Source: Candidatus Nomurabacteria bacterium
GTDB lineage: Bacteria; Patescibacteriota; Minisyncoccia; Phycocordibacterales; UBA9973
Reading direction: 5' to 3'
DNA: 64,000 nucleotides
Assembly (NCBI GenBank): GCA_016199805.1
Contig: JACQGC010000018.1
Coordinates: forward strand, 5,219-69,218
Positions 5,148 to 47,306 of the stretch are shown here, piece after piece; positions within the stretch are counted from its first letter, which is position 1, and each line of letters begins with the position of its first letter. The notes beneath the pieces are model-generated. The model was not told where the DNA came from, did no database searches, and was given only the letters and a program-made list of their open reading frames with translations. Made by a program: the position numbers and the translations under genes.

Positions 5148-5257
5148 ACCTGTCCCGTACTAAATTTTTTAGAAAATATATTATGATAAAATATAATTAG
5201 AAAGAAAAAAGAAATGAAAATTATTAATAAAAATTTAAAATTTTAGTACTGGGATGA
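5148..5257 (+). repeat. bipartite stem-loop element (copy 1) between gatC and gatA
   Basis: acctgtcccgtactaaattt ... aatttaaaattttagtactgggATGa. The ends are inverted repeats (cccgtactaaa / tttagtactggg) around an AT-rich loop. A second copy lies at 47230-47306. The element ends in the gatA start codon. Confidence 0.45.
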
Positions 5258-6672
5258 TTGATATAGCCAAACTCACAATTGCAGAGGCGAGAAAAAAATT
5301 GGATGCAAAAGAATTTAGCGCGGTAGATTTGGCGCAGGCATATTTGGATGAAATAAAAAAGAAAAACAAAGAACTTAATGCTTATCTGGAAATTTTTGAT
5401 GATGTTTTGGAACAAGCCAAAGAAGTGGATGCTCGAATTGCCAAAGGGGAGTCGTATCCATTGCTCGGTATTCCTATGGCTATCAAAGATGTTATTTTGA
5501 TAAAAGGTAGGCGAGTTTCTGCCGCGTCGAAAATTTTAGAAAATTACAGAGCCACTTATGACGCTACAGTAATAACCAAATTAAAAAAACAAGGTGCAGT
5601 ATTTTTAGGCAGAACAAACATGGATGAATTTGCCATGGGAGGTTCCACAGAAAATTCTGCTTTCGGCCCGACCAGAAATCCACACGACACCAGAAGGGTT
5701 TCTGGGGGGTCTTCGGGTGGATCTGTGGCTGCAGTGGCCTCCAATATGGCCCTAGGAGCACTGGGTTCAGACACAGGGGGTTCTGTGCGAGAGCCGGCAT
5801 CTTTCTGCGGGATAGTGGGTATGAAGCCTACCTATGGCCGTGTATCGCGTTATGGGCTTATAGCCATGGGTTCTTCGTTGGATTGTATAGGCAGTATTGC
5901 TAAAAACACTGAAGATGCAAAAATTATCTATGATGCCATTTATGGGCATGACATCTTGGATAGTACGAGTATTGAAGATACCACTTATGCAAAACCCCAA
6001 ATAAAAAAAGTTATCGGCGTACCTTGGGATTTAGTCAACATGGAAGGGGTGGATGTGAAAGTCAAAGAAAATTTTAAACAGTCTATTTCTAAATTGGAAA
6101 ATCTTGGTTTCAAAATCAATGATATTTCCATAAAAAATATTGATATGGCTCTGGCGACTTACTATATTATTATGCCGGCGGAATCTTCCACAAACTTATC
6201 GCGTTTTGATGGAATGAGATATGGGTTACATAAAGATGGAAAAGATTTACTTGAAGACTATAGATTGACAAAGAGGGCAGGTTTCGGGAAGGAGGTTCGC
6301 AGGAGAATTTTGCTTGGCACATATGTGCTTTCTTCTGGATATTACGATGCCTATTATGGCAAGGCACAAATAGCTAGGAGCGCGTTAAAAGAGGAATTCG
6401 CGAAAGCGTTCAAGGATGTAGACATTGTAGCCACTCCGACTGCTCCATTTGTGGCTTGGAAAATAGGTGAAAAAAGTGATCCGCTGTCCGTATATCTTGC
6501 TGATATTTTTACCATTACGGCAAACATGGTTGGTATTCCGGCGATTTCTATACCCTCCGGTTTTTCGGAAGTAGAAGGCAAAAAATTGCCATTAGGAATT
6601 CAGTTTATGGCGCCACACGGGGCAGAGGACCTGCTTTTTGAAGTTGGTAAGAAGTTTGAGACAGTGTTATAA
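5254..6672 (+). CDS. gatA: Glu-tRNA(Gln) amidotransferase subunit A
   Basis: 472 aa with the amidase signature GGSSGGSVAAVAS and an LTIAEARKKL N-terminus. Confidence 0.9.
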   Translation: MIDIAKLTIAEARKKLDAKEFSAVDLAQAYLDEIKKKNKELNAYLEIFDDVLEQAKEVDARIAKGESYPLLGIPMAIKDVILIKGRRVSAASKILENYRATYDATVITKLKKQGAVFLGRTNMDEFAMGGSTENSAFGPTRNPHDTRRVSGGSSGGSVAAVASNMALGALGSDTGGSVREPASFCGIVGMKPTYGRVSRYGLIAMGSSLDCIGSIAKNTEDAKIIYDAIYGHDILDSTSIEDTTYAKPQIKKVIGVPWDLVNMEGVDVKVKENFKQSISKLENLGFKINDISIKNIDMALATYYIIMPAESSTNLSRFDGMRYGLHKDGKDLLEDYRLTKRAGFGKEVRRRILLGTYVLSSGYYDAYYGKAQIARSALKEEFAKAFKDVDIVATPTAPFVAWKIGEKSDPLSVYLADIFTITANMVGIPAISIPSGFSEVEGKKLPLGIQFMAPHGAEDLLFEVGKKFETVL

Positions 6673-6681
6673 TTTTTATAT

Positions 6682-7326
6682 ATGCAAACAGCTCAAGTTG
6701 TAGCGGAAAATAACCCCAACACCGGAACCTTCCTGGATTCCAGATACCTCGATCCGGGATATCTGTTTAATCACTTATTTCCCTATGTTAAAGATTTTTG
6801 GTTTTTTATCTCCAGTGACCAAGCCATAGCGGTTGAAAAAACCATCCTTGTTTTTCTGGCCATATTCTTTATCGCCATAATTTGCTACACATTTGTGCGT
6901 TTGTTTGAAATTCGAAAAAAAGAACATGCGCACCTGCATCACGAGATGAAGGAATATATGCACAACAAAACCGAGTACGAAAAACACCTGCGAGAAGAAG
7001 TCGGAGGTTCGAAAAATGAACGTTGGGGCAAGACATTAAACTATCTCTTTTCACAACATGGCAGTGATTGGAAACTGGCCATCATCGAGGCGGACTCTAT
7101 GCTCGAAGGCTTGCTCGACCAGCTCGGCTTCAAAGGGGACAACCTGGGTGACAAACTAAAATCTGCCAACCAAGAAAATTTTTCACAGCTTTCCACGGCT
7201 TGGGAAATTCATACTGTGCGAAACAGAATAGCCCACGAAGGACTAGCCTTTGAATTGACCCAGCATGAAGCCAAAAGAGTCATTGCCCTGTACGAGCAAA
7301 TCTTTCATAGTTACGGGTTTATATAA
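6682..7326 (+). CDS. hypothetical membrane-anchored protein
   Basis: 214-aa ORF with one TM (ILVFLAIFFIAIICYTFV) and a charged His-rich cytoplasmic part; no family recognised. Confidence 0.5.
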   Translation: MQTAQVVAENNPNTGTFLDSRYLDPGYLFNHLFPYVKDFWFFISSDQAIAVEKTILVFLAIFFIAIICYTFVRLFEIRKKEHAHLHHEMKEYMHNKTEYEKHLREEVGGSKNERWGKTLNYLFSQHGSDWKLAIIEADSMLEGLLDQLGFKGDNLGDKLKSANQENFSQLSTAWEIHTVRNRIAHEGLAFELTQHEAKRVIALYEQIFHSYGFI

Positions 7327-7374
7327 CCCCACCTCAAATCCTCCCCTTACATTAATGTGAGGAAGTTTTCTAGT

Positions 7375-7445
7375 TGCGGGAGGCCGAATCGAACGGCCGT
7401 CTTAAGGTTATGAGCCTTACGAGATGCCTCTTCTCTATCCCGCTG
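7375..7445 (-). tRNA. tRNA-Met (anticodon CAU), initiator-like
   Basis: Reverse complement folds as AGCGGGA-U8-A-GAGA/UCUC D-stem, UAAGG/CCUUA anticodon stem with loop CUCAUAA, GGCCG/CGGCC T-stem with loop UUCGAUU, and discriminator A. The 1:72 A-A mismatch and A11:U24 resemble initiator features. Confidence 0.75.
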
Positions 7446-7551
7446 TGAAGCAAAAGCTTATGTATGTATTATATTACAAAACAGGATTTTTGCAAGTAAA
7501 AATTTGAAAATAAGCCAGAATATGCTATTCTAAGCTGTGTTTGATATATAT

Positions 7552-7624
7552 GTCGGCGTAGCTCAGGCAGTAGAGCATGGGACTCATAAGCCCAATGTCG
7601 CAAGTGCAAGTCTTGCCGCCGACA
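7552..7624 (+). tRNA. tRNA with anticodon CAU (elongator Met or lysidine-type Ile2)
   Basis: GUCGGCG/CGCCGAC acceptor, GCUC/GAGC D-stem, anticodon loop CUCAUAA, T-stem GCAAG/CUUGC with an unusual T-loop UGCAAGU; 73 nt. Confidence 0.75.
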
Positions 7625-7680
7625 CAAAGCAATATTTATCCACATTGTTGGTTAGTTGTATCTCCTGTCACGGGGTATAA

Positions 7681-8016
7681 TGTTTAGGTCGTGGTTATTT
7701 TGATGGAGATGGTAACGTATGGTCAGGTTTAATGCATAAAGAAAGGAAAACAAAAAACTTTGTTATTTTCGTTGCATTCACTTCATGCTCATATGAGTTT
7801 CTGAATGAATTACAGAAGAGGCTTAATTTAGTCGGCATTGCCGGGGGTAGTATTTATAAGTCTAAAAAAAGAAAATTTTGCAGATTGCAATTCAGCACCT
7901 CCGGAGCTTTGAAATTGTATGATTTTATGTATAATAGGAAGGTAGAAGACTTTTTCGGCCTATTTTTAAATAGAAAGAAGAAAATCTTTGAAAAATTTAA
8001 TAGATTGCGGCTGTAG
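7681..8016 (+). pseudogene. LAGLIDADG homing-endonuclease-like ORF lacking a canonical start; its 3' end overlaps exon 1 of tRNA-Asp
   Basis: In-frame translation after the TAA at 7678 reads CLGRGYFDGDGNVWSGLMHKERKTKNFVIFVAFTSCSYEFLNELQKRLNLVGIAGGSIYKSKKRKFCRLQFSTSGALKLYDFMYNRKV... The GYFDGDG motif plus the downstream beta-strand pattern matches single-motif LAGLIDADG enzymes of the I-CreI type. The first ATG (7732) falls after the motif. The TAG stop lies within tRNA positions 8-10. Confidence 0.5.
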
Positions 8017-8317
8017 CTCAACGGTAGAGCACCCGCCTGTAGATTCGTGCAGCTTTCTGTCGAAAAGGCAGATTGAAACTCTTTGGGATATCGGTGAAGG
8101 CTAACCTCCGACTTTGTGTCGGAGTATGCGAATACCGAGGGAACCCTTCCATATTTTTGCTTTTATAATAAGTAAGCAAAGAGAAGGGGCGCCGTAGAGA
8201 CTAGATACCAAAGCACCTAAAAGTGAAAACTCACGGTGAAGATATAGTCCACGCCATTATGAAAATATTGGACTTAGTGCACGTGGGAGGCCGTGGGGTC
8301 AGCACCCATCAGCCGCG
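8007..8317 (+). tRNA. tRNA-Asp (anticodon GUC) interrupted by a group I intron in the anticodon loop
   Basis: Exon 1 (8007-8040) is GCGGCUG-UA-GCUC-AACGGUA-GAGC-A-CCCGC-CUGU. Exon 2 (8280-8317) is CAC-GUGGG-AGGCC-GUGGG-GUCAGCA-CCCAU-CAGCCGC-G. The joined loop CUGUCAC, G73, G10 and C38 match tRNA-Asp identity. Acceptor halves GCGGCUG/CAGCCGC pair perfectly across the insertion. The exon ends in U and the intron ends in G. Confidence 0.7.
8041..8279 (+). mobile_element. group I intron (about 239 nt) within tRNA-Asp
   Basis: Contains conserved core elements: the R-like sequence GUAGAGACUAGA (8193-8204; compare the Azoarcus intron GUAGAGACUAGACGG) and the S element AAGAUAUAGUCC (8239-8250). Size is typical of tRNA-borne group I introns (200-250 nt). 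Boundaries follow the 5'-exon-U / intron-omegaG rule. Confidence 0.7.
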
Positions 8318-8413
8318 CAAACATTTTCGATCTTAATTTATAAAGGTTTTTTTCTGCTGACTGATTGGATACAGAACTTCATGTTTGTTTAATATTTTTT
8401 GTGTATAATTTAG

Positions 8414-8773
<360 letters not shown>

Positions 8774-8937
8774 ACGCCGGAGCACTGTTTTGATAGTAAT
8801 CAAAACGCGAGGCGGTGCCCAGACCAAAATTTTTGACGAAAAATTTTGAGTCGCGGGAAAGATTCCGGTCGCTCGCGCAAAAAGAGATTTTTTCATCTTC
8901 ACAATTTCTTAATGAGAGAAAGTGTTATAATGAAACA

Positions 8938-9423
8938 ATGCAAGATGCACCCATTCCGGTGGATGAAGAAAAAAGAATAGAAGCAGTACATCGCTTGGCT
9001 ATATTGGATACCAAGCCGGAAGAACGATTTGATATTCTGACGCAGGAAGTAGTGAAGAAATTAAATGTATCTATGTCTATGGTCACCATACTGGATTCAA
9101 ACAGAGAATGGTTCAAGTCTTGCGTGGGGCTGGATAAAAAAGAAGGGGACCGGGCGGCATCTTTCTGCGGGCACGCGCTTCTCGCCAAAAATATTTTTGT
9201 GGTAGAAGATACCTTGAAAGACCCACGTTTTGCCGACAATCCCATGGTGGTTGGTTTTCCGTTTATCAGGTTTTACGCTGGTGTGGCTCTCTTTGATTAT
9301 AAAACCCGGCAGCCCATAGGCGTCTTCTGTGTGAAAGACACCAAACCAAAAAAACTCACCGTGCAAGAGATAGCCATCATTATAGATCTCGCCAATAAAG
9401 CGGAGAAAGAACTCAATAAATAA
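8938..9423 (+). CDS. stand-alone GAF-domain protein
   Basis: EKRIEAVHRLAILDTKPEERFDILTQ...SFCGHALL...FVVEDTLKDPRFADNP is a GAF fold. An extended -10 (TGTTATAAT) ends about 7 nt before the ATG, so the mRNA may be leaderless. A longer ORF from 8815 is possible. Confidence 0.7.
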   Translation: MQDAPIPVDEEKRIEAVHRLAILDTKPEERFDILTQEVVKKLNVSMSMVTILDSNREWFKSCVGLDKKEGDRAASFCGHALLAKNIFVVEDTLKDPRFADNPMVVGFPFIRFYAGVALFDYKTRQPIGVFCVKDTKPKKLTVQEIAIIIDLANKAEKELNK

Positions 9424-9463
9424 TTTTTGCAAAATAAGCCAAAATACACTAAGATAACTGGGT

Positions 9464-9538
9464 GCCGTCGTAGCTTAGCGGTAAAGCACGTCATTGGTAA
9501 TGACGAGACCAAGGGTTCGATCCCCTTCGACGGCTCCA
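9464..9538 (+). tRNA. tRNA-Thr (anticodon GGU)
   Basis: GCCGUCG/CGACGGC acceptor, anticodon stem CGUCA/UGACG with loop UUGGUAA, T-arm GGGUUCGAUCCCC, encoded CCA. Confidence 0.85.
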
Positions 9539-9546
9539 GGTTTTTT

Positions 9547-9619
9547 GCCGCTGTAGCTCAGGTAGTAGAGCAACGAATTCGTAATTCGTGGGTCGGATGT
9601 GCAAGTCATCCCAGCGGCT
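9547..9619 (+). tRNA. tRNA-Thr (anticodon CGU)
   Basis: GCCGCUG/CAGCGGC acceptor, anticodon stem ACGAA/UUCGU with loop UUCGUAA, T-loop UGCAAGU (same variant as the CAU tRNA). Confidence 0.85.
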
Positions 9620-9620
9620 C

Positions 9621-10508
9621 ATGGAACTAGATAAAAGTAATATAGAAAGCGAAATAAAAAAACTGGAAGACGAAATGCAAGCTCCGGATTTTTGGAATGA
9701 CAAAATGAGAGCGCAGGGTATTTTGAAAGAGCTGGCAGAACTAAAAGATAAAAAAGAAGGCGCAAATAAATACGACAAAGGCAACGCGATTGTGACCATA
9801 ATCTCCGGCGCGGGCGGAGACGACGCTGAAGATTTTTCATTGATGCTTTTTTTGATGTACGAAAAATATGCCAAGAAGCGAAGCTGGGGGCTAACGCTCG
9901 TCAGTGAACATAAAAACGACCATGGTGGATACCGAAACATTTCTTTTGAAGTTGCAGGCAAGGGTGTCTACGGGTTGCTCAAAAATGAAGGCGGCGTGCA
10001 CCGATTGGTGCGGATTTCGCCCTTTAACGCTAAAAAATTACGGCACACGTCTTTTTCGTTGGTGGAGATTTTGCCGAAGTTCTCAAAGTTGGAAGAAAAA
10101 GACGTTGTCTTGAGGCCTGAAGATTTAAAAATAGAATTTGCCAAAAGTGGCGGCCCAGGCGGACAAAACGTGAACAAGAGAGAGACAGCAGTACGCATTG
10201 TCCATGTTCCGACCAATATTTCGGCGCACGTTTCTACAGAGCGTTCCCAGGAACAAAACAGGGAATTGGCTATGGCAATACTCCGCGCCAAGATTTTCAA
10301 AAAAGCCGAGGAGGAAAAGAAAAGCATAGAAGAGAGCATGAAGCTGACCAAGAACACCGAGATAGAATGGGGCAGTCAGATACGCTCGTATGTCTTGCAC
10401 CCGTACAAGATGGTTAAAGACCACCGCACCAATGCGGAGACTTCTAACGTGGATGCTGTTTTGGACGGCGACTTGGATATTTTTATTGAAGCCGAGAAAA
10501 TTTTGTAA
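9621..10508 (+). CDS. prfB: peptide chain release factor 2 (compact form, no programmed frameshift)
   Basis: GGQ motif (SGGPGGQNVNK), SPF tripeptide (RISPFN), and C-terminal GWGSQIRSYVLHPYKMVKDHRT. The ATG at 9621 immediately follows tRNA-Thr. At 295 aa it is about 60 residues short in domain 1 compared with E. coli RF2. Confidence 0.85.
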   Translation: MELDKSNIESEIKKLEDEMQAPDFWNDKMRAQGILKELAELKDKKEGANKYDKGNAIVTIISGAGGDDAEDFSLMLFLMYEKYAKKRSWGLTLVSEHKNDHGGYRNISFEVAGKGVYGLLKNEGGVHRLVRISPFNAKKLRHTSFSLVEILPKFSKLEEKDVVLRPEDLKIEFAKSGGPGGQNVNKRETAVRIVHVPTNISAHVSTERSQEQNRELAMAILRAKIFKKAEEEKKSIEESMKLTKNTEIEWGSQIRSYVLHPYKMVKDHRTNAETSNVDAVLDGDLDIFIEAEKIL

Positions 10509-10590
10509 ATTCTTAAATAAAAAAAAGACGTGGGGTTTATCCCCCCACACCTCTTGCCAAGCCACATAAATCTGAAGTATTATTAAGCTT

Positions 10591-11358
10591 ATGAAAATAA
10601 AAATTGGTTTTCTGTTGGCCGTTTTGTTTTTTACTAGTGTGGGTTTTGTGCACGCCGCTGATTTAAATTTTACTAATAACACCAATATAAATATTGGAGC
10701 CAATACATATGTCATTACTGCCGGCTCAGTAGCCACTTCTCCGATGACTTTGAGCGCCACGACCCTGACGGTAACTGTGCCTGCCGGTACTTTTACCTTG
10801 CAATCTGCAAATGGTTTTGCCCTAGGCACAACCGGTAGCTTACCCCAATCCTGCAACGGCGGCACAAACCAAGTTATCATCACCGGAGTAGCCGGACCGA
10901 TAGTTATCACGCCAAACACTGGTTCAGTTGTCTGTCCTAGTAGTGGAAGTGTCACTTCTTCTGGCAGTGGCGGTTTAGTTTCCAGTGCACCATTACCACC
11001 CCCAGTCGTTACTCCACTACCAGCGACAACTCCACCTCCAACCGCAACCACTCCACCAGTCACAACTCCCACAACTCCAGTAACCACTCCAACCGGCAGT
11101 ACATCACAACCAACTGTAGCATCTCCCGTAACCTACAATTTAGGCACCACCACATTAAAGAATGGCAGTACCGGCAACGCCGTCAAAGAACTGCAAAGAT
11201 TTTTAAACAGCGACTTGAAGGCAAACATAGCGGTGGACGGCAAACTTGGACCGAAGACCATCGCCATCATCAAGAAATGGCAGAAAGCCCACAAGTTAAC
11301 CCCCGATGGTCTGATAGGGGCCAAGACCAAGAAATTGATGAATTCCTTAGCCAAGTAG
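10591..11358 (+). CDS. secreted Pro/Thr-rich protein with a C-terminal peptidoglycan-binding (PG_binding_1) domain
   Basis: Signal peptide, an ADLNFTNN motif, a PPVVTPLPATTPPPTATTPP linker, and a C-terminal GNAVKELQRFLN...DGKLGPKTIAIIKKWQKAHKLTPDGLIGAKT. Confidence 0.75.
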   Translation: MKIKIGFLLAVLFFTSVGFVHAADLNFTNNTNINIGANTYVITAGSVATSPMTLSATTLTVTVPAGTFTLQSANGFALGTTGSLPQSCNGGTNQVIITGVAGPIVITPNTGSVVCPSSGSVTSSGSGGLVSSAPLPPPVVTPLPATTPPPTATTPPVTTPTTPVTTPTGSTSQPTVASPVTYNLGTTTLKNGSTGNAVKELQRFLNSDLKANIAVDGKLGPKTIAIIKKWQKAHKLTPDGLIGAKTKKLMNSLAK

Positions 11359-11404
11359 TTTAAATTATTATTAAAATTATTAATTAAGTTTCGTAAAATC
11401 ACAA

Positions 11405-12052
11405 ATGCAAAATCAAAAAAAGTTTCTAATGAGTCTCGCCATATTACTAGCCGTCTTCTTTGTAGCTACCCAAGTCTTGGCTGACCTGACTTTCACCAAC
11501 AATTCCATCTCTGGCACCACAGCTTCTCTTTTAGACGTGGGAGCCGGGAACACCCTTTCATTACAAACCACCAACAATGGTCCGGTTACTTTCGGTAACG
11601 GTGCCATTACCATTGGCAACTTAGCCGGAGGTGGCATCAAATGTCTGCATGTTTCCAATACCGGAGTCGTCTCTGTGGCGGCGGCGGATTGTGGAGCGGG
11701 GGGAACAACTACTTTACAATTTTCTTTTATGTTGGGGGCTGACGGCGGAATTGCTTTAACGGATGGAATAGCTCAAAATACTATTTTCAGTAACCAACTC
11801 GGCAGAGGTATTCATATCACCAAGGTTTGGTGTGAGACGGATGCAGGAACTCCTACATTAAATATGAAAAAGCGCGGGGCTGGGTCCAACCTATTGTCAA
11901 GTAATTTAACTTGTACCACTTCCGGAGCTTCAGGCACGACATTTTCTTCAACTCAAGATGCATATGCTGATGGAGATATTATGGATTTCACATTAGCCAC
12001 AGCGACAACTGCGCGAAGGATTACAGTTGTAGTTCGTTACACTCTTGACTAA
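11405..12052 (+). CDS. secreted hypothetical protein (KCLHV-motif family, paralog of 48484-49233)
   Basis: Signal peptide plus ADLTFTNN; shares DxGAGNTL-x-QT..PVT.G.G..T.GNL..G..KCLHVxNTGxV..AAADCGxGG with the 48.5-kb ORF. Confidence 0.7.
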   Translation: MQNQKKFLMSLAILLAVFFVATQVLADLTFTNNSISGTTASLLDVGAGNTLSLQTTNNGPVTFGNGAITIGNLAGGGIKCLHVSNTGVVSVAAADCGAGGTTTLQFSFMLGADGGIALTDGIAQNTIFSNQLGRGIHITKVWCETDAGTPTLNMKKRGAGSNLLSSNLTCTTSGASGTTFSSTQDAYADGDIMDFTLATATTARRITVVVRYTLD

Positions 12053-12060
12053 ATAAAAAT

Positions 12061-13761: not shown

Positions 13762-13808
13762 AATATTTTTTCTTTGTTCGAACAAAAATCTATGGTAAGA
13801 TAAGGGAA

Positions 13809-14477: not shown

Positions 14478-14561
14478 TGGTATAATAGAATTACTTGTCC
14501 CGTTAGAAAATCAACGGACTTGTAAAAGTATGAAGTTTATTATTTTAAATTTTTTAATGGG

Positions 14562-15485
14562 ATGACAATGACGACTTTGAGAAGAATTATAAAGGGCGGA
14601 TTTTTGAACTTTAAAAGAGGCGGCATTGTTTCCTGGGCCGCGGTCTTGGTGGTGACCATCACTCTTTCCGTCATTACGCTCATAATTTTTCTTCAGGCGG
14701 TTTTGCATTTTTCCTTGAGCCAAATTAAAGATAAAGTTGATGTAACTATTTATTTCACTACCAGCGCGCCGGAAGATAAAATTCTGGCCTTGAAATCTTC
14801 TCTGGAGCAATTGCCCGAAGTGGCAAATGTTTCTTATACCAGCGCGGCGCAAGCCCTGCAACTTTTCCGTGACCGTCACCAAAATGATTACCCGACAATT
14901 CAAGCTCTGGATGAAATTGGGGCAAACCCACTCGGGGGATATCTCAATGTCAAAGCCAAAGAAGTTTCGGAGTATGAAAGCATCGCCAACTTTATGAAAT
15001 CCGACAATGCGCTCGTGCTCGGCTCGGCTTCCATCGTAGACAAAGTGAATTATTATCAAAATAAACTGGTCATAGACAGATTGAATACCATCATTGGCGG
15101 CGCGCAAAGACTCGGTTTTCTGTTGACATTTGTTTTGGTGATTATTTCCATCATTATCACTTTCAATACCATTCGTTTGGCCATATTTATCTCCAAAGAA
15201 GAAATTGGTGTCATGCGCCTGGTGGGTGCCTCCAAGATGCACGTGCGGGGACCTTTCATGACGGAGGGCGTGATATACGGTATCGTGGCTACGCTCATCA
15301 CTATGTTTATTTTTTGGCCAATCGGTTTTTGGTTGGGTAAAAACATGACCGATTTCCTCGGAATTAATCTCTACAATTACTATCTTTCCAACTTCTTTCA
15401 AATTTTTGCAATAATTTTATTATCAGGTATACTGCTAGGTGTGATTTCGAGTTTGCTGGCGGTTAGGAGGTATCTTAATAAATAG
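14562..15485 (+). CDS. ftsX: cell division permease-like protein FtsX
   Basis: 307 aa with an N-terminal TM, a periplasmic domain and a C-terminal FtsX-type 3-TM bundle, downstream of ftsE. Confidence 0.85.
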   Translation: MTMTTLRRIIKGGFLNFKRGGIVSWAAVLVVTITLSVITLIIFLQAVLHFSLSQIKDKVDVTIYFTTSAPEDKILALKSSLEQLPEVANVSYTSAAQALQLFRDRHQNDYPTIQALDEIGANPLGGYLNVKAKEVSEYESIANFMKSDNALVLGSASIVDKVNYYQNKLVIDRLNTIIGGAQRLGFLLTFVLVIISIIITFNTIRLAIFISKEEIGVMRLVGASKMHVRGPFMTEGVIYGIVATLITMFIFWPIGFWLGKNMTDFLGINLYNYYLSNFFQIFAIILLSGILLGVISSLLAVRRYLNK

Positions 15486-15518
15486 TTAAAAAGTAGAAAG
15501 TTATAAAATCAATAAAGT

Positions 15519-22181: not shown

Positions 22182-22252
22182 TACGGGATCTGCTAATGGT
22201 AGGCAAACGCTCTCTGAAAGCGTGAATCTTGGTTCGAATCCAAGTCCCGTAG
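22182..22252 (+). tRNA. tRNA-Gln (anticodon CUG)
   Basis: UACGGGA/UCCCGUA acceptor with U1:A72 and G73 as in bacterial tRNA-Gln, anticodon stem ACGCU/AGCGU with loop CUCUGAA, T-arm CUUGG-UUCGAAU-CCAAG. Confidence 0.8.
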
Positions 22253-22253
22253 C
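22236..22253 (+). repeat. 18-bp direct repeat gaatccaagtcccgtagc (left copy, the tRNA-Gln 3' end)
   Basis: Identical 18-mer at 22611-22628; together they bound the GIY-YIG insertion. Confidence 0.8.
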
Positions 22254-35796: not shown

Positions 35797-35800
35797 AATA

Positions 35801-35850: not shown

Positions 35851-35853
35851 ATT

Positions 35854-37265: not shown

Positions 37266-37287
37266 GAAAAGTGGTATAATATCCCGC

Positions 37288-37743: not shown

Positions 37744-37755
37744 TAAGATAATTTT

Positions 37756-38253: not shown

Positions 38254-38268
38254 CTCGGAATTATAAAC

Positions 38269-38619: not shown

Positions 38620-38681
38620 CGCACCATCTTCATTAGTTCTTTCGTATATAGCCTGTATTATCAATATCAAACACACAACAC

Positions 38682-39191: not shown

Positions 39192-39194
39192 TTT

Positions 39195-40067: not shown

Positions 40068-40096
40068 ATTATATTGTTACCCCTAGATCAATACCT

Positions 40097-40516
40097 ATGC
40101 CCCATTTCAGCCATGGCGTAAATGGGGCAGTGTGGTATCATATATACATGAGCCCAAGATATAAAGGTATGCGAGTAAATGCTTTCGGTTTGCCAGCATT
40201 TAAAAATGGCAGGAAAAGCCGTGCAAAAACTGAAAACAGGAAAAAATCTTTTTATCATGTCACTTTTCTTTCACCTTTTAAAAAAGATTCTTCAAAGAAT
40301 TTGATTGTAATGTACGACATTCCACATTTACAGAAAAAGGAGCGGGATTGGTTTCGTCGGCAATTAATAAAATTTGATTATATAATGATTCAAAAAAGTG
40401 TTTGGGTTGGACCGTCTCCACTACCCAAAAATTTCTTAGACTACTTAAAAGAAATAAAAATAGGGGATAAGTTTAAAACCTTTACATTGGCAAAATCTTA
40501 TACAGAAAAACTTTAA
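40097..40516 (+). CDS. hypothetical small protein with a Cas2/VapD-like C-terminal half
   Basis: NLIVMYDIPHLQKKERDWFRRQLIKFDYIMIQKSVW...GDKFKTFTLA resembles the Cas2 pattern (hydrophobic strand-YD, ...R..R..L...G..IQ.SVF, ...D.V.I..L). The ORF start lies inside a palindrome, so the true start may be internal. Confidence 0.4.
   Translation: MPHFSHGVNGAVWYHIYMSPRYKGMRVNAFGLPAFKNGRKSRAKTENRKKSFYHVTFLSPFKKDSSKNLIVMYDIPHLQKKERDWFRRQLIKFDYIMIQKSVWVGPSPLPKNFLDYLKEIKIGDKFKTFTLAKSYTEKL
40098..40129. repeat. 32-bp palindrome TGCCCCATTTCAGCCATGGCGTAAATGGGGCA (near-perfect; upstream copy)
   Basis: Centred on CCATGG; differs from the downstream copy by a CA/AC swap. Confidence 0.75.
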
Positions 40517-40537
40517 TTTACTACATTACTTACCGAC

Positions 40538-40569
40538 TGCCCCATTTACGCCATGGCGTAAATGGGGCA
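40538..40569. repeat. 32-bp perfect palindrome TGCCCCATTTACGCCATGGCGTAAATGGGGCA (downstream copy)
   Basis: Its reverse complement equals itself. Second copy 440 bp upstream; together they bracket the Cas2-like ORF. Confidence 0.8.
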
Positions 40570-40617
40570 CGATGTCTTGATGTATAATTTTTTTCATAAT
40601 TTTGCTATAATAGCTTC

Positions 40618-42360
40618 GTGGAATCACAAACTAAACAGTGCCAGAATTGCCAGAAAGACTTTATAATAGAGCCGGATGATTTCGGTTTTTACGAGAAAAT
40701 AAAAGTCCCTCCGCCGACCTTTTGCCCGGAATGCCGGCTACAAAGGCGCTTGGCCTGGCGTAACGAGCGGGCCTTGTACAAACGCAAGTGCGGTTTATGC
40801 CAAAAAAGTATTATTGCAATGTATCATGAATCCATGCCATTTCCCGTATATTGTCGAGAGTGTTGGTTCGGAGATGGATGGGACCCAACTTTATATGGAA
40901 AGAAATACGATTTCAATAGAACATTTTTCGAACAATATAAAGAATTTTCAAATACTGTGCCCAGGCTAGCTTTGTGGCAAAGGAGTTCTACAAATTCAGA
41001 TTATTCCAATATGGTTGGAGAATCGAAAAATGTATATCTATCTTCTTCGGTTGTAAAAGAATCAGAAAATGTTTTTTATTCAAAGTCGGTAGATAGATCC
41101 AGAGATATCGTTGATTGTTTAAATATAATAAACGGATCAGAGAGTTTGTATGAGAACGTGGAAGCACAAAGTAATTATAATTCTCAATATCTTTTACTCT
41201 GCAGGAGTTGTTTGGATTCATACTATTCTGTTGATTGTATAAATTGTAGTAATTGTTTTCTTTCTTACAATTTGCGAAATAAAAAATTTTGTATTCGCAA
41301 TCAGCAATATGAAAAGGAAGATTATTTTAAGAAAATAGAAAAATTAAATTTAAGGAGCAGGGCTTCACGTGATTTTTTGCTGGAAGAATTTGCAGAAATT
41401 AAAAAGAAGGCAATTTATCGTTTTGGAAATATCACTAAATGTATTAATGTGACAGGAAATAATCTTTTGAATGTAAAAAATGGTAAAGATTGTTTTGAAA
41501 TTTATGATGTGGAAAATGCGAAATATTGTTATCGAGCGTTTAATCTCAAAGACTGTATGGATTTTGATTATGGAGGGTGGTCAGAATTGATGTATGAGTA
41601 CGTAACTGGCAGTCTAAATGATTATAATGTTAAATTTAGTTATTCTGCGATGGAATCCGTAAGAAATGCCGATTATACGGAATTTTGTCGAAATTGTTCT
41701 AATCTGTTTGGTTGTATTTCACTTAAAAATACAGAAAATGCAATTCTGAATATAATTTATTCCAAGGAAGAATACGAAAAACTCCGGACGCAAATCATGG
41801 AACATATGAATAGCAATCCATTTATAGACAAAGCAGGCAAAGTTTATCGATATGGAGAATTTTTTCCTATAGAAGTTTCTCCTTGGGTATATAATGAGAC
41901 TTTGTCTCAGGAATTTTTCCCAATTACCAAAGAAGAGGCGGAGAGGAATGGTTATCCATGGCGGGAACCGGATGTAAAAAATTTCGAGATTACAATTCCT
42001 ACAGAAAACATTCTGGACAATATTGACGATGTTAGTGAAGATATTTTAAAAGATGTTCTGGGTTGTGCCCACGCAGGAGAGTGTGCTCATCAATGCAATA
42101 CTGCTTTTCGTTTAACAAACTATGAACTGGTTTTTTATAAAAAACATAACATACCGCTTCCAATTCTTTGCCCCAACTGTCGTTATTACGAAAGATTCAA
42201 AGTTATGCCAGCATTGAAATTATGGCACAGGCAATGCATGTGTGATAAGAAACACACGCACCATGAGGGCAGATGCGAGATTGAATTTGAGACCAGCTAT
42301 GCGCCAGATAGGCCGGAAATAGTATATTGTGAAAAGTGTTACCAGCAGGAGGTTTACTAG
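40618..42360 (+). CDS. 580-aa cysteine-rich protein with N- and C-terminal zinc-ribbon modules and a central Asn/Ser/Cys repeat region
   Basis: GTG start after an extended -10 (GCTATAAT). Termini: CQNC-17-CPECRLQRR...C.LC and CPNCRYYERF...C.C, each with the shared FY.K..(V/I)P.P..CP.CR motif. The middle has about 20-aa periodic repeats (C.NCSN.F...). Confidence 0.6.
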   Translation: MESQTKQCQNCQKDFIIEPDDFGFYEKIKVPPPTFCPECRLQRRLAWRNERALYKRKCGLCQKSIIAMYHESMPFPVYCRECWFGDGWDPTLYGKKYDFNRTFFEQYKEFSNTVPRLALWQRSSTNSDYSNMVGESKNVYLSSSVVKESENVFYSKSVDRSRDIVDCLNIINGSESLYENVEAQSNYNSQYLLLCRSCLDSYYSVDCINCSNCFLSYNLRNKKFCIRNQQYEKEDYFKKIEKLNLRSRASRDFLLEEFAEIKKKAIYRFGNITKCINVTGNNLLNVKNGKDCFEIYDVENAKYCYRAFNLKDCMDFDYGGWSELMYEYVTGSLNDYNVKFSYSAMESVRNADYTEFCRNCSNLFGCISLKNTENAILNIIYSKEEYEKLRTQIMEHMNSNPFIDKAGKVYRYGEFFPIEVSPWVYNETLSQEFFPITKEEAERNGYPWREPDVKNFEITIPTENILDNIDDVSEDILKDVLGCAHAGECAHQCNTAFRLTNYELVFYKKHNIPLPILCPNCRYYERFKVMPALKLWHRQCMCDKKHTHHEGRCEIEFETSYAPDRPEIVYCEKCYQQEVY

Positions 42361-42383
42361 CCTTTGGCTAGTGTACTGATTTT

Positions 42384-42406
42384 CCTCCCCCTAATGTAGG
42401 GGGAGG
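42384..42406. repeat. palindrome CCTCCCCCTA-ATG-TAGGGGGAGG
   Basis: 10-bp arms. Nearly identical element at 56997-57018 (CCTCCCCCTACGTAGGGGGAGG). Confidence 0.7.
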
Positions 42407-42441
42407 TTAGGTGGGGGTATAATTTAGTGCTGAGGTGAATT

Positions 42442-44322
42442 TTGCACCACTTTTTTGTAATTTGGCGTATAATATGGGGTATGAGCAAAAAATCACACAA
42501 AAGAATATTTGGTTTTTCATTTTTAATTTTAACAATAATGTTTTTGTCTTTTACCAGTAAGGCTTTTGCCATGACTCCCACATTGTCGCTTTCTCCGACA
42601 GGGGACGGGGACTCGGTGCAAGTAAATGTCACCGGCGACCCGAATTCCAGTGTGCTTATTTTCTATATTAAAACCGGGTCTGGTCCACAGACTCTTTCTC
42701 TCGGAACTACCAATACAAACGGGACTTTGACAAACACAGTCAGTACTTCAAACTATGGTGTGGCGGCAGGCAGTTCGGTGTATATCACTACGGGTGGCAT
42801 CAATGGTGCCCATTCCAACACAGTAGCTTGGCCGGCAGTCAGTTCTCTTCTCTCTAGCAGTAACATGCTGACCTTGAGCCAGACGGGCCTCGTGCTCACC
42901 CTCGGGCAAGCTATGTCTGTTACCGCCACCAATCTGAACAACAGTCAGCTTTATCAAGCCAGCAATACCAGTCCGCAAATCGCAAATTTTAGCATCAGTG
43001 GCTCTCAAATAAATGTCACCGCCAACAGCTACGGCACCACCACGGCTTCTTTTTGCTTGATTAACAACACTTCAAACTGTGGAAGTATTTATGTCATCGT
43101 TCAAAGCAGCAGTGCGCAACCGCTCACCTTCAGCCAGAGCAGTGTGACACTGTCTCCAGGGCAAACTGTCTCCGTACAAATTTCCGGCGGTTCCGGAGTT
43201 TATTCGGTGCTCAATAATTCCAGTCAAAACAATGGTGTGGTTACGACCAGTATCTCTAGTAGCACCATCACTTTGACCACGAGTGGTACGACCGGTTCGT
43301 CATCTATAACTGTTTGTTCTACAGACATGAATTCTTGCGGTATCATCAACGTGACTATCGGCAATACTGTTTCTTCGGCAGTTTCATTTAGTCAGCAAAA
43401 CCCAACCCTTGCCGTAGCCCAAAGTCTGAACATCAGTATTTTTGGTCCGACCAACAGCTTATTTTATGTGAATTCAAATTCAAACCCAAGCATCGTTCAA
43501 GCCAATCTCTCGGGTAGCACTCTAACTCTTCTTGGAATCACCACCGGCTCTTCGACAATAAGTATCTGTGCCTCTACGAGTAATTGTGCCAATTTGAGTG
43601 TAACCGTCAGCACTAGTTCGAGTGGTGGGGCGTTGATTTTGAGCCAACAAAGTGTAAATCTTTCTGTTGGGCAGACGAGTACAGTGACAATTTCCGGAGG
43701 CACGATGCCATACAATATTTTCACAAACTCCAGTAATATTTTTCAAGCAACTTTAAATAGTAATATACTTACACTCGTAGGTTTGAGTAACGGAACTTCT
43801 CTTATGAACGTATGTTCTGCGGGAGGGAATTGCCTAACATTATCTGTGTATGTGGGAGTAACCAATCCCAATGCCTTGCCTACAGGTTGTGTATCTACGA
43901 CGGGTTTTAGCCAGACGACTGGCCAGTCGTGCAATACCACAACCACAACCACAACCACTACCAATACATACGTACCCGTAGATTGCACCGGGGCCGCTTT
44001 TAGTGTTTCTACTGGAGTGGCTTGTCCCGCCAACACTATTACCACTACTCCCGTAACTACGGTCACTGTTCCAGACGATACTATCAACACTCCGACAACG
44101 AGCACTGCCTTTAAATTCACCAAAGCAATCAAGCTTGGCTCAAAAGGCGCAGAAGTTACGCAGCTACAGAAAAAATTAAAAACTCTGGGATATTTTAATA
44201 CCACAGCCACCGGAACCTTTGGCCCCATTACAGAAAAAGCAGTCAAAGCATTTCAAAAAGCACACAAACTTCCGCAAGTGGGCAATGTGGGACCGCTCAC
44301 GCGCGCGCTTCTCAATAAATAA
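42442..44322 (+). CDS. cell-surface protein: signal peptide, five Ig-like (about 80-aa) repeats, Thr-rich stalk, C-terminal PG_binding_1 domain
   Basis: Tandem repeats (L.LSQ..V.L..GQ..SV...)...C..L.V. C-terminus GSKGAEVTQLQKKLKTLGYF...FGPITEKAVKAFQKAHKL. Confidence 0.7.
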   Translation: MHHFFVIWRIIWGMSKKSHKRIFGFSFLILTIMFLSFTSKAFAMTPTLSLSPTGDGDSVQVNVTGDPNSSVLIFYIKTGSGPQTLSLGTTNTNGTLTNTVSTSNYGVAAGSSVYITTGGINGAHSNTVAWPAVSSLLSSSNMLTLSQTGLVLTLGQAMSVTATNLNNSQLYQASNTSPQIANFSISGSQINVTANSYGTTTASFCLINNTSNCGSIYVIVQSSSAQPLTFSQSSVTLSPGQTVSVQISGGSGVYSVLNNSSQNNGVVTTSISSSTITLTTSGTTGSSSITVCSTDMNSCGIINVTIGNTVSSAVSFSQQNPTLAVAQSLNISIFGPTNSLFYVNSNSNPSIVQANLSGSTLTLLGITTGSSTISICASTSNCANLSVTVSTSSSGGALILSQQSVNLSVGQTSTVTISGGTMPYNIFTNSSNIFQATLNSNILTLVGLSNGTSLMNVCSAGGNCLTLSVYVGVTNPNALPTGCVSTTGFSQTTGQSCNTTTTTTTTTNTYVPVDCTGAAFSVSTGVACPANTITTTPVTTVTVPDDTINTPTTSTAFKFTKAIKLGSKGAEVTQLQKKLKTLGYFNTTATGTFGPITEKAVKAFQKAHKLPQVGNVGPLTRALLNK

Positions 44323-44364
44323 AATACTTAGGCAAAAACCAAGCGTTGATGTATACTACAGGTA

Positions 44365-45516
44365 ATGAAAAAGAATCTTTTCTGGATTATTTTGGTACTG
44401 CTTATTATTATCGGTGCCTGTTTTTTCTTCCCGGGATTTTTGGGCGGGGCTGTTTCGTATAAAAAAAGCGCGCAAGTAATAAATACCAGTTTACCCGAAG
44501 TAAAAGCTAACCCAATTACTTCGAATAAAGCTCCTCTCGACGTTATCGCCTATGATAAAAAATTAAATGAAATAGCCAACAATCCACCGGATCCTATCAT
44601 TTACACAACCGTCAAAACTCCCGGGAAAGATAAGAACGGCAAAGCTATAACCATAACCACCAAAGTTCCTCTTGACCCACAGCCGGTAAAAACCCATCTC
44701 TGGCCGGTAAAAACAGTTTATCCGAATGCCGGCGCGCTTTTGCCTTTCAACCGCATCGTCGCTTATTATGGAAATTTATATTCAACCAAAATGGGAGTGC
44801 TCGGGGAATATCCCGAAGCTATAATGCTAGAGAAGTTGGAAGCAGAAGTAAAAAAATGGGAAATAGCTGACCCGACGACTCCGGTGATTCCGGCCTTGCA
44901 CTACATCGCAGTAGTTGCCCAAGGAGCTCCCGGCGATAGTGGTAAATATAGATTGCGGATGCCAGGCTCTGAAATAGATAAAGTGCTGGCCATGGCGGGG
45001 AAAATAAACGCGATAGTTTTTTTGGATATTCAGGTTGGCTTTTCCAATGTGCAAACAGAAATTCCGCTGTTGGAAAAATATTTAAAATTGCCAAATGTGC
45101 ACTTGGCCATTGACCCGGAGTTTTCCATGAAGACCGGCATCCGTCCGGGAAAAGTCGTGGGCACCCTCGACGCGGCTGATATAAATTTTGCCGCTAATTA
45201 TCTGGCCAATCTCGTGAAAGAAAATAATCTCACTCCGAAAATTCTCATCATTCACCGATACACGCAAAAAATGGTGACGAATTACAAACTTATCAAACCA
45301 CTGCCAGAAGTTCAATTCATTATGAATATGGATGGCTGGGGCGGGGAGGCAAAAAAAATCGGCACCTATAAAAACTTTATTTATCCGGAGCCGGTGCAAT
45401 TTACCGGTTTCAAATTATTCTACAAAAATGACATTTTGACTCCTGGCACCACCCTGATGACACCGACTACTTTGCTCAAATTAAATCCACAGCCCATATA
45501 TATACAGTATCAGTAA
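44365..45516 (+). CDS. hypothetical exported protein
   Basis: N-terminal TM or signal peptide; 383 aa; no confident family. Confidence 0.5.
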   Translation: MKKNLFWIILVLLIIIGACFFFPGFLGGAVSYKKSAQVINTSLPEVKANPITSNKAPLDVIAYDKKLNEIANNPPDPIIYTTVKTPGKDKNGKAITITTKVPLDPQPVKTHLWPVKTVYPNAGALLPFNRIVAYYGNLYSTKMGVLGEYPEAIMLEKLEAEVKKWEIADPTTPVIPALHYIAVVAQGAPGDSGKYRLRMPGSEIDKVLAMAGKINAIVFLDIQVGFSNVQTEIPLLEKYLKLPNVHLAIDPEFSMKTGIRPGKVVGTLDAADINFAANYLANLVKENNLTPKILIIHRYTQKMVTNYKLIKPLPEVQFIMNMDGWGGEAKKIGTYKNFIYPEPVQFTGFKLFYKNDILTPGTTLMTPTTLLKLNPQPIYIQYQ

Positions 45517-45699
45517 ATAGGTGTTATAATATAAAAATGCCGGGTATTGAAAGCCAAAATTCTAGTCCCAAAAAGGTACTCTCTCCGGAAGAGGAATTTC
45601 CGCTAACCCATTCAGAAAGAGAAAAAAATATTTTAAGAAATAGAATCAGGATGAAAGGATACAAGAATCTTTCCGAAGAAGAATCAATGCAATGGTATC

Positions 45700-46119
45700 T
45701 TGACACAGAAGAGAGTAAAAATGACAATAGCCCACATCATGGAAACTAAAGAACAAAAAGCTTGGCGGGAAGTAAAATATCACGAGAAATTTTTAAACGC
45801 CTTTCGGGGGTTGCGGGTTTTTTGGAGTACGACCAGGAATTTATACGTGCATATTTTTGTGGCGCTGGTGGCTGTATTTTTTGGATTTTATTTTGAAATT
45901 TCCGGTTTTGAATGGATTGCTTTGATTTTTGCCATATCTTTTGTTTTTGTTTCCGAAGCATTTAATACGGCCATTGAGATAGACATAGATCTGACCTCTC
46001 CTGAATATCATCCTTTTGCCAGAGACACCAAAGACGTAGCTGCCGCGGCTGTCTTGCTGGCTGTGTTTACGGCCATCATTATCGGGCTGATAATTTTCTT
46101 GCCGAAAATCTTCATCTAG
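45700..46119 (+). CDS. dgkA: diacylglycerol kinase / undecaprenol kinase family (DgkA)
   Basis: REVKYHEKFLNAFRGL...VSEAFNTAIE...AKD.AAAAVL: 3-TM prokaryotic DAGK signature. Confidence 0.75.
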   Translation: MTQKRVKMTIAHIMETKEQKAWREVKYHEKFLNAFRGLRVFWSTTRNLYVHIFVALVAVFFGFYFEISGFEWIALIFAISFVFVSEAFNTAIEIDIDLTSPEYHPFARDTKDVAAAAVLLAVFTAIIIGLIIFLPKIFI

Positions 46120-46187
46120 TTTTCATTAGATTTTTATAATCTTACAAAAGAATTTAAAAAGTAGTTCCTTTAAAAAGGAGGGGGCAG

Positions 46188-46733
46188 ATGGGGATAGACG
46201 AAAATGTTGGACGAATAGTTTTTTCTTTCGCGAGGGATACACCTTGGGAAGAAATCAGCCACGAGTTCTATGAGCCCTTTCTTGCTCTTCCTCCGGAGAA
46301 GCGCGGGAAAATATGGGCAGATTTTGTGCGTTCCGGCTGTGGGGTTCGGACTATCTCTGTTCCAGACACAGAGATTTTAAAAGTCAGAAGAATAATTACC
46401 AATGTCAGGGATTTGGAAGAATGGCAGCACCCCGCGCAGACCATAGGCGCTGTAAAAGGCCACATGATTTACGACTTCTTGGAAAAAAGTAAAATGCTGG
46501 ATAGGTGTATTAACCTGACCAGCCTGAAGTTGATTCAGGCCAAGGGACCCTCCTTTTACCGCCACTACTGGGCCGGAAAAAAGATTTTCGCCTGGAAGTC
46601 GGTTAGACCCAGGAGCCCAAAAAGCAAGTTACGGCGCGCCCCATTTCTCTGTGAGTGCGGTGATAAGATTTTGCTGGATTATCGCTTTCTGGATGACAAT
46701 TGGCCCAGCGACAGCCCTGCTTTGATGTATTGA
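46188..46733 (+). CDS. hypothetical protein
   Basis: 181 aa, slightly GC-enriched, followed by a terminator. Confidence 0.45.
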   Translation: MGIDENVGRIVFSFARDTPWEEISHEFYEPFLALPPEKRGKIWADFVRSGCGVRTISVPDTEILKVRRIITNVRDLEEWQHPAQTIGAVKGHMIYDFLEKSKMLDRCINLTSLKLIQAKGPSFYRHYWAGKKIFAWKSVRPRSPKSKLRRAPFLCECGDKILLDYRFLDDNWPSDSPALMY

Positions 46734-46750
46734 AGATTATCTGTTTTTTG

Positions 46751-46797
46751 GGTCTGGTGAGCTATTAAGGCGCGCCAGACCTTGCTGTATGTTTTTT
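46751..46797 (+). terminator. hairpin GGUCUGG...CCAGACC plus U-tract
   Basis: 7-bp stem, GC loop, then TTGCTGTATGTTTTTT. Confidence 0.5.
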
Positions 46798-46816
46798 AAA
46801 TTGTTAAAATGTATGT

Positions 46817-47227
46817 ATGGGAAATAATAATGTTAAAATTTTCATTGGAATAATCGGTCTTTTGATTCTGGGCACAATTGCCGCAGTATTATTGCAGTCA
46901 AACAGCACCCCTCCGGGGCCAGGCAAATATGATACTTTTGCGACTTGCCTGAAAGACAAAGGCGCCGTGTTTTACGGAGCTTGGTGGTGTCCACATTGCC
47001 AGGCTCAAAAGAAAGCTTTTGGTTCTTCCGCTAAATACTTGCCTTATGTCGAATGCTCTACAGCTGACGCGACTGGACAGTTGCAAGTATGTACAGATCA
47101 AAAAATACAAAGCTATCCGACTTGGAAACTGGCCGATGGTACTATTATTCCCGACGATTCACCAGATGGAGCCGGAGTGAAGCTTGAAACCTTGGCCGCC
47201 AAGACGGGCTGCGTGTTGCCACAATAA
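46817..47227 (+). CDS. membrane-anchored thioredoxin-fold thiol:disulfide oxidoreductase
   Basis: TM, then WCPHC active site (CxxC) and a second Cys pair. Confidence 0.7.
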   Translation: MGNNNVKIFIGIIGLLILGTIAAVLLQSNSTPPGPGKYDTFATCLKDKGAVFYGAWWCPHCQAQKKAFGSSAKYLPYVECSTADATGQLQVCTDQKIQSYPTWKLADGTIIPDDSPDGAGVKLETLAAKTGCVLPQ

Positions 47228-47229
47228 AT

Positions 47230-47306
47230 ACCTGTCCCGTACTAAATTTCACCTAAAAACAAATGACCACTATTATTAACAATTTAAAATTTTAGTACTG
47301 GGATGA
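47230..47306 (+). repeat. bipartite stem-loop element (copy 2) between the thioredoxin-like and DsbB-like genes
   Basis: Same end sequences as 5148-5257, including the ...tagtactgggATGa start-codon context. Confidence 0.45.

Follow-up and report, generated by a model that had tools for sequence, protein, structure and literature searches.

A probable family of MITE-like inverted-repeat insertions at the start-codon edge of unrelated genes in Candidatus Nomurabacteria

The stretch of DNA analysed here, called the window, comprises 64,000 nucleotides of contig JACQGC010000018.1 from the Candidatus Nomurabacteria assembly GCA_016199805.1. Two gene junctions in it, one between gatC and gatA and the other between a thioredoxin-like and a DsbB-like gene, carry the same bipartite element directly in front of the downstream start codon. 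An earlier reading of this DNA (the sequence-only reading) had reported the duplicated element at 5148–5257 and 47230–47306 and had assigned these four gene labels; the duplication and the labels were both confirmed. We call the element F1 (family-1). It very probably belongs to a family of insertion-polymorphic elements resembling MITEs (miniature inverted-repeat transposable elements), which is tied to the start-codon edge of genes.

A search of the window found ACCTGTCCCGTACTAAATTT exactly at 5148–5167 and 47230–47249, and AATTTAAAATTTTAGTACTGGGATGA exactly at 5232–5257 and 47281–47306. With up to three mismatches allowed, no third match to either end was found in the window, and the number expected by chance is 0 (100 shuffles), which rules out a chance repeat as the origin of the two ends. 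The ends of both copies are inverted repeats, in which TCCCGTACTAAA and TTTAGTAC(T)GGGA form 13 bp around a single bulged T. The stem closes with a pair that takes the A of the ATG, and a further G·U pair can include its U; the stem is thus able to sequester the start codon, as had been proposed. Similarity between the 3' modules of the two copies extends over approximately 57 nt. The description of the interior as AT-rich was correct, but the spacers between the arm cores measure 77 and 44 nt and not 60–90 nt. The copy between gatC and gatA belongs to a size class of 99–104 nt and has an interior that we term type C.

Folding of the two whole elements, proposed as a check on the hairpin, gave weak z-scores (−1.4 and −1.8), an effect of the AT-rich interior. 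We also calculated, for 68 genes of the window, the pairing of the 16 nt ending at the AU of the ATG with the upstream 110 nt. The mean of this start-proximal pairing is −7.0 kcal/mol (sd 3.4), and the three best starts of the 68 are 14562 (−16.9 kcal/mol), 5254 and 47303 (−15.8 kcal/mol each). Following up the strong pairing at 14562 revealed a third, related element with a minimum free energy (MFE) hairpin of −18.3 kcal/mol, so that all three elements of the window occupy the first three ranks. This third element belongs to a sister family, F2, and within it to a subfamily F2a. Since an extended −10 motif lies 6 nt in front of it, the predicted transcription start is the first A of the element. 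Other start-proximal stems in the window (22687 and 37288) are chance-like in appearance. The coordinates of the features are collected in Table 1.

Table 1. Elements, their parts and associated genes. Positions refer to the window unless a locus number is given.
Feature	Position	Strand	Remark
GatC	4871–5143		Stop 5141–5143
F1 element, long form	5148..5253	+	106 nt; between gatC stop and gatA ATG; exact ends
Conserved 5' flank ACCTGT	5148..5153	+	G and last T able to pair with U and A of ATG
5' arm CCCGTACTAAA	5154..5164	+	
Promoter-like TTTAGA-18-TATAAT in interior	5168..5197	+	Predicted; consensus match only
Upstream open reading frame (ORF), 10 codons, MKIINKNLKF*	5214..5246	+	Ends 7 nt 5' of gatA ATG
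3' arm TTTAGTACTGGG	5242..5253	+	Bulged T at 5250; gatA ATG immediately 3'
GatA/Amidase	5254–6672		ATG 5254–5256
Leaderless-type extended −10 TGGTATAAT	14478..14486	+	6 nt 5' of first base of F2a element
F2a sister-family element, ACTTGT CCCGTTAGAA...TTTTAATGGG	14493..14561	+	Abuts ATG at 14562
Arms of F2a element	14499–14508 and 14552–14561	+	
Thioredoxin(-like)	46817–47227		Stop 47225–47227
F1 element, short form	47230..47302	+	73 nt; interior type B; between thioredoxin-like stop and DsbB-like ATG
Arms of short form	47236–47246 and 47291–47302	+	
Upstream ORF of short form	47263–47295		
DsbB(-like)	47303–47854		ATG 47303–47305
Leaderless-type starts, examples	4871, 8938, 23939, 29339, 37288, 42481, 44365, 46817, 51577		
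16S rRNA 3' end, locus L047	3940–4001	+	
16S rRNA 3' end, locus L034	7160–7098	−	

A collection with one genome per species was scanned with the bipartite pattern CCCGTACTAAA...TTTAGTACTGGG, yielding at least 117 loci, some of which are cited below by number (L002 and so on). The pattern demanded exact arms, and all figures for 120 or 121 copies refer to the matches listed, window included. The hosts are metagenome-assembled genomes labelled Candidatus Nomurabacteria, Paceibacterota or Patescibacteria, plus third-party assemblies labelled Saccharibacteria; judged from these matches, F1 is confined to Candidatus Nomurabacteria/Paceibacterota. The 121 copies fall into two size classes of 64–72 and 99–104 nt, measured from arm to arm. 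The unit as a whole measures 73–110 nt, its arms pair over at least 13 bp and it has no conserved ORF. The 5' end is conserved as tACYTGT-CCCGTACTAAATTTTTGATTA and the 3' end as TTAAAATTTTAGTACTGGG, the flank being kept as A in 108, C in 106, Y in 112, T in 110, G in 107 and T in 118 of 120 copies. The interiors are of several types (A with UUACGGGR, B with ATGACC, the long type C, and others), which coexist within genomes.

Further copies abut start codons and are not scattered at random positions: an ATG follows directly in 107 of the 121, and the orientation of the element relative to the gene is the same in every one (121/121). The 105 downstream proteins form 77 clusters, and the genes include essential ones (gatA, murC and a ribosomal protein S19-like gene). 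Because approximately 77 unrelated gene families lie downstream, F1 is not a regulon, an idea that we dropped, and the proposal of a device made for gatA and the DsbB-like gene in particular does not stand. No F1 match was found in viral contigs, which speaks against a viral origin. An Rfam 15 scan of the whole window gave no match at the element, and a permissive scan of 5100–5300 gave only chance-level matches (E >1).

Minimal forms, consisting of the hairpin with a 4–5 nt loop and no interior, occur at L117 7939–7971, L027 524–552 (−) and L067 5704–5732 (−). The one in L117 adjoins an ATG; another has a T-run behind it, like an intrinsic terminator. A terminator family was considered and rejected, as only two short F1-like hairpins were found, one of them with a T-run behind.

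The comparison of orthologous junctions shows how the element arrived. The window GatA is closest to those of L119, L120 and L041 (80, 79 and 73% identity), and the gatC–gatA junction is empty in all three. It reads ...attctaTAAaaaag|ATGATTGAT in L119 and is an overlapping ATGA in L120. In a distant clade (L004, L011 and L030; GatA 55% identical to that of the window), the junction is filled, with three different interior types. Many other orthologous junctions in the fetched loci are filled in one species and empty in another at 70–91% protein identity, and the position of the break is always exactly 5' of the ATG, as a comparison of L002 (gaaTAAat[ACCTGT...CTGGG]ATG) with L101 (gaaTAAaaat ATG) illustrates. 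Since the junctions are empty in close relatives, the F1 element is an insertion, and its mobility is well supported by these sequence comparisons. The sequence-only reading had offered a small MITE that carries its own start codon as one possibility. A mobile inverted-repeat element fits the filled and empty sites; the ATG, however, belongs to the gene, because the empty orthologous sites hold the same ATG and the codons that follow. By the same alignments, ACYTGT is part of the element and not of the gene.

The sister family F2, with arms reading CCCGTTAGAR/YTCTAAYGGG, emerged from an unbiased search for inverted repeats that adjoin a start codon. Subfamily F2a shares its ACTTGT flank with the F1 type of flank and includes the third element of the window. 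Subfamily F2b has perfect arms and, in 9 of 10 copies, a direct repeat of 4–6 bp on both sides, made of the start codon and the next bases (ATGNN), as in ATGAGT[CCCG...CGGG]ATGAGA. Comparison of L126 with the empty L124 allowed the insertion into an overlapping gatC/gatA junction to be reconstructed. We read the direct repeat as a probable target-site duplication, which supports transposition; duplication of the start codon is limited to F2b.

Our literature search found no account of such an element in Patescibacteria and no MITE abutting start codons. F1 shares with prokaryotic MITEs its small size, the lack of coding capacity, terminal inverted repeats, dispersal, presence/absence polymorphism and subfamilies (PMC10969869). 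It is an inverted-repeat non-coding unit with dispersed copies at non-homologous sites, and is present or absent at orthologous sites. It differs from typical MITEs in having no target-site duplication, and no autonomous insertion sequence partner was found within the approximately 1.25 Mb of fetched loci. The term 'start codon' is absent from the text of a 2024 review of prokaryotic MITEs (PMC10969869).

The Correia elements of Neisseria (CREE/NEMIS) are approximately 100–150 bp long and gene-adjacent; they are co-transcribed, supply promoters and form hairpins in mRNA (PMC2649163, PMC5039591). F1 resembles CREE in being small, non-coding, adjacent to genes and probably co-transcribed with them, in having terminal inverted repeats that fall into two size classes of element, and in its promoter-like motifs and predicted hairpin. 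Their sequence and host phylum are unrelated, however: the arms and flanks of F1 do not match the 26-bp Correia repeat, and its hosts are Nomurabacteria/Paceibacterota and not Neisseria. CREE duplicate TA, whereas F1 duplicates nothing and F2b duplicates ATGNN. Moreover, CREE are fixed neither at zero distance from a start codon nor in one orientation, and the host of F1 is without an anti-Shine–Dalgarno sequence.

REPINs are typically extragenic, RAYT-associated repeats situated downstream of genes; they carry a GTAG head and number in the hundreds. REP/REPIN sequences resemble F1 and F2 as hairpin repeats between genes in which compensatory changes keep the stem, and the hairpin-only forms resemble singlets. 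The head of F1 and F2 is CCCGT and not GTAG, there are approximately three copies per 64 kb, and they are tied to start codons. Integron attC sites have R''/R' cores (RYYYAAC / GTTRRRY) that are not present in the F1 ends (ACYTGTCCCG...CTGGG), and they lie in cassette arrays next to intI, whereas F1 copies are single and scattered before housekeeping genes. Matus-Garcia et al. (2012, Nucleic Acids Res) reportedly described putative mobile promoters, which are homologous upstream regions before unrelated genes, some of them repeat-derived. Those are defined by the repeated upstream sequence alone, without a hairpin that closes on the start codon as in F1.

Pairing between the arms was assessed on a table of 45 distinct rows built from arm constructs of F1 and F2; the arms were partly preselected for complementarity by the searches. 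In this table 92% of the cells pair and 10 of 16 pairs have changed on both sides. None of 500 shuffles reaches the observed level, and controls with slid arms are 33–51% paired. The ends thus do pair in a covariation analysis. The stem has 13–20 bp with a bulge and a mismatch, and in both F1 and F2 it ends exactly at the AUG (...GGG|AUG). Among the non-Watson–Crick pairs read on the sense strand, 11 are G·U and 2 are A·C. In L022 and L028, where the start codon is GTG, the corresponding pair is C–G. The excess of G·U on the sense strand, and a stem that includes part of the start codon and covaries with it where this is GTG, argue against arms that serve only as DNA.

The hosts lack a conventional means of finding the start codon. 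The 16S rRNA 3' ends of two element-bearing Nomurabacteria (...GGAAGCTGGTCGTGGAATAATTCAAT) are without the CCUCC core of the anti-Shine–Dalgarno sequence, so the ribosomes' route to the start would be either entry at the 5' end of leaderless mRNAs or re-initiation after an upstream stop. Both arrangements are seen in the window. Most of its genes start 6–8 nt past an extended −10 (TGnTAnAAT), a leaderless arrangement, and operon-internal genes begin a few nt after the previous stop without a Shine–Dalgarno sequence.

The position of F1 follows these two arrangements. In 71 of 120 copies, the distance from the stop of a same-strand upstream ORF to the first base of the element is no more than 12 nt, and mostly 1–4 nt. 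Among the other 49, TAnnnT is found 5–9 nt 5' of the first base in 21; the TG-extended −10 is found at that distance in 10 of the 49 versus 2 of the 71 stop-proximal copies. Between the −10 and the element there is the same spacing as between the −10 and the ATG where the orthologous site is empty (L093 vs L091, L006 vs L051 and L074 vs L056), and the F2a copy of the window has the same spacing behind its −10. The first A of the element thus stands where the A of the ATG stood before insertion.

These observations can be joined in a mechanism. The first base of the element would replace the ATG, 1–5 nt past the upstream stop or at the transcription start. The arms would then pair in the mRNA, the A and U of the AUG included, and the AT-rich interior of 45–80 nt would be looped out. 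The AUG would be held, masked, beside the point at which the ribosome arrives, be it the stop of the upstream gene or the transcript's 5' end. Melting of the 5' arm by a ribosome that terminates 1–5 nt before the stem, or that is loaded at the 5' end, would release the AUG, and downstream translation could stay coupled or 5'-end-dependent despite the insertion. Where there is no transcription from upstream, the interior may provide its own promoter. Taken as a whole, the best explanation in our view is a non-autonomous MITE-like F1 family whose arms, by pairing in the mRNA, loop the insert out and preserve initiation, and we give this full account an even chance of being right. The sequence-only reading had suggested translational coupling as one function; the geometry of the stop-proximal copies fits it, and the role itself stays conditional. 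That the hairpin forms and acts in RNA, that looping out couples translation, where transcription starts and how the element transposes are points that we infer from sequence.

Several observations weigh against this account. A compensatory change in the arms is also expected if the hairpin serves transposition as single-stranded DNA. The conservation of the arms is partly selected because the retrieval pattern required exact arms; unselected extra F1 copies in the fetched loci comprise two with exact arms, three with one or two arm mismatches and one that is 5'-truncated. L076 retains only the 3' half of the element. Transcripts of copies that rely on an internal promoter would lack the 5' arm and hence cannot need the hairpin in order to be translated. 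In five orthologous copies before a secreted-protein gene (L068, L072, L075, L085 and L103), the element is followed by ATT and the ORF starts inside the element, with the 3' arm translated as KILVLG, part of the signal peptide. The murC copies of L009 and L057 have a conserved 8-codon mini-ORF (MKLIKKLK / IKIIKKLK) between the element and the real start; it ends 1 nt 5' of the real murC ATG, and its start in L009 is ATA. As to mobility, no target-site duplication of F1 exceeds the permutation expectation at any offset, and neither a transposase partner with the same ends nor arm pairs more than 170 nt apart were found in approximately 1.25 Mb of fetched loci.

The strongest alternative is a purely selfish MITE or a portable promoter-plus-leader cassette. 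The arms would be only terminal inverted repeats or a DNA hairpin for transposition, and the RNA hairpin would have no function. The adjacency to the ATG would come from insertion specificity and purifying selection in a gene-dense genome, and the internal promoter together with the AU-rich 3' end would serve expression of the downstream gene. The filled and empty orthologous sites, the duplicated start codon of F2b and the 5'-truncated copy before an intact gene all agree with it. So do the type C interiors, which share 71–91% identity in front of different genes in different species and retain TTGAGn-N18/19-nATAAT (in seven species), the motif to which the promoter-like sequence of the gatC–gatA copy corresponds. 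An internal TG-extended −10 is commoner where it would be needed: it is found in 10 of 28 copies without either upstream input versus 6 of 92 others, and it is kept among orthologous copies before one gene (L007, L058, L064, L078 and L108). What such an element does not predict, besides the G·U asymmetry and the covariation of the stem with the start codon, is the single strict orientation of all 121 copies, the fixed short distance from the first base to an upstream stop or −10, and the ATG that still adjoins the interior-less hairpin in L117. On balance, we regard a purely selfish element or cassette as possible but rather unlikely.

A second alternative is an RNA processing signal, in which an endoribonuclease removes the insert and leaves an mRNA of the leaderless mode. 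Either RNase III would act on the stem or an enzyme of the RNase Y/E type would cut after GGG. The host, with leaderless-type starts and no anti-Shine–Dalgarno sequence, is suited to such a product, and the stem ends at GGG|AUG in both families. Correia elements in Neisseria are RNase III substrates (PMC2649163), and RNase III is reported to be retained in Candidate Phyla Radiation genomes (PMC12641178). RNase III, however, cleaves within stems and not at their base, and the F1/F2 stem is short and imperfect. There is also no ribozyme-like conserved core, since the interior types differ. We consider processing improbable.

Still less probable is a dedicated regulatory switch, such as a thermometer or a protein- or ligand-bound element, with the long-range stem as the off state, a local hairpin as the on state and one signal for a whole regulon. 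It is suggested by an 'anti-arm' complementary to the 5' arm in some interiors (UUACGGGG in F1 type A, for example L035 20–85, and AACGGAC in F2a, window 14513–14519), which changes together with the arm between the families. The local hairpin of 5' arm and anti-arm has −12.3 (F1 type A) and −7.2 kcal/mol (F2a) versus −21.1 and −18.3 kcal/mol for the full stem; if formed, it leaves the AUG unpaired. Types B and C have no anti-arm, however. The downstream genes are unrelated housekeeping genes that differ between species, the presence of the element at a given gene is not conserved, and no Rfam family matches. The least credible alternative, and a very unlikely one, is a pair of DNA operators in which a protein bound to the arms as half-sites would loop or occlude the promoter-like motifs between them: the arms are indeed much more conserved than the interior, but a DNA site has no need of zero distance to the ATG, the G·U asymmetry and the bulge are unlike identical half-sites, arm spacings of 44–81 bp show no evident helical phasing between the two size classes, and hairpin-only forms leave a loop of 4–5 nt.

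The account with looped-out inserts can be carried further, to an element that is self-neutralising at the RNA level. A terminated or 5'-loaded ribosome would cross the insert of 80–115 nt and reach the AUG, located at the stem's 3' base, a bacterial counterpart of shunting or bypassing in a lineage that lost Shine–Dalgarno pairing; we consider this extension unlikely. In this shunting version, the ATGNN on both sides of F2b could act as matched take-off and landing sites for the initiator tRNA. Two viral systems offer analogies. In the 'Min Jou' interaction between the coat and replicase genes of MS2, the start is masked by upstream pairing and opened by ribosomes translating upstream. In the 35S leader of cauliflower mosaic virus (CaMV), ribosomes can pass to the hairpin's 3' base because stop and stem are close together. 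Both are analogies for a possible mechanism and concern single viral loci, whereas F1 is a mobile family known from sequence.

The Candidate Phyla Radiation makes up a large share of bacterial diversity, and to our knowledge almost nothing is known about how translation starts in these bacteria. The F1 family amounts to more than 100 natural experiments in which 70–110 nt were inserted between a start codon and its source of ribosomes, in hosts without an anti-Shine–Dalgarno sequence. Should coupling or 5'-end-dependent initiation be restored by the hairpin, this would represent a new cis-acting initiation mechanism and a new route by which a mobile element becomes harmless. If F1 is only a MITE that targets start codons, its insertion specificity, with the ATG duplicated in F2b and no duplication in F1, would indicate transposition by a mechanism that has not been described. 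A practical use of the elements is to flag true start codons, and probably transcription starts as well, in genomes whose annotation is difficult.

The upstream ORF inside the element was considered as the core function, in the form of a conserved peptide (MKIINKNLKF / MTTIINNLKF), and was not accepted. Its length of 10 codons is kept in types B and C, with non-synonymous substitutions; several copies have ATA in place of its ATG, a frameshift is present in one, and the ORF is absent from type A. A TAAAAT, considered as a possible leaderless promoter of the downstream gene, lies 12 nt 5' of the ATG, versus 6–8 nt for genuine leaderless-type promoters in this genome. A divergent gene starting at the other arm (CAT-CCCG; L037, L072 and L075) was rejected as well, the reverse ORFs being short and without conservation.

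Three F1 copies have no ORF behind them, with ATA in place of ATG followed by a terminator-like hairpin (L034 4916–5017, L047 5680–5782 (−) and L097 1228–1330). They are kept at the same locus in three species, with the 16S rRNA gene approximately 2 kb away in L034 and L047, and may encode a small RNA. The gatC–gatA gap of another member of the Patescibacteria (L138, approximately 880–990) holds a different inverted repeat, TTTTTCTGTCCGTACCCTGAACTTTTT...AAAAAGTCCAGAGTACAGACAGAAAAA, with the core CTGTCCGTAC in common, and that of L128 (approximately 1455–1490) holds a simple hairpin. Elsewhere in the window there is a cobalamin riboswitch on the minus strand at 57223–57362 (Rfam RF00174, 36.6 bits), and tRNA genes lie at 7373–7444, 7552–7625, 9464–9538, 9547–9620 and 22182–22253.

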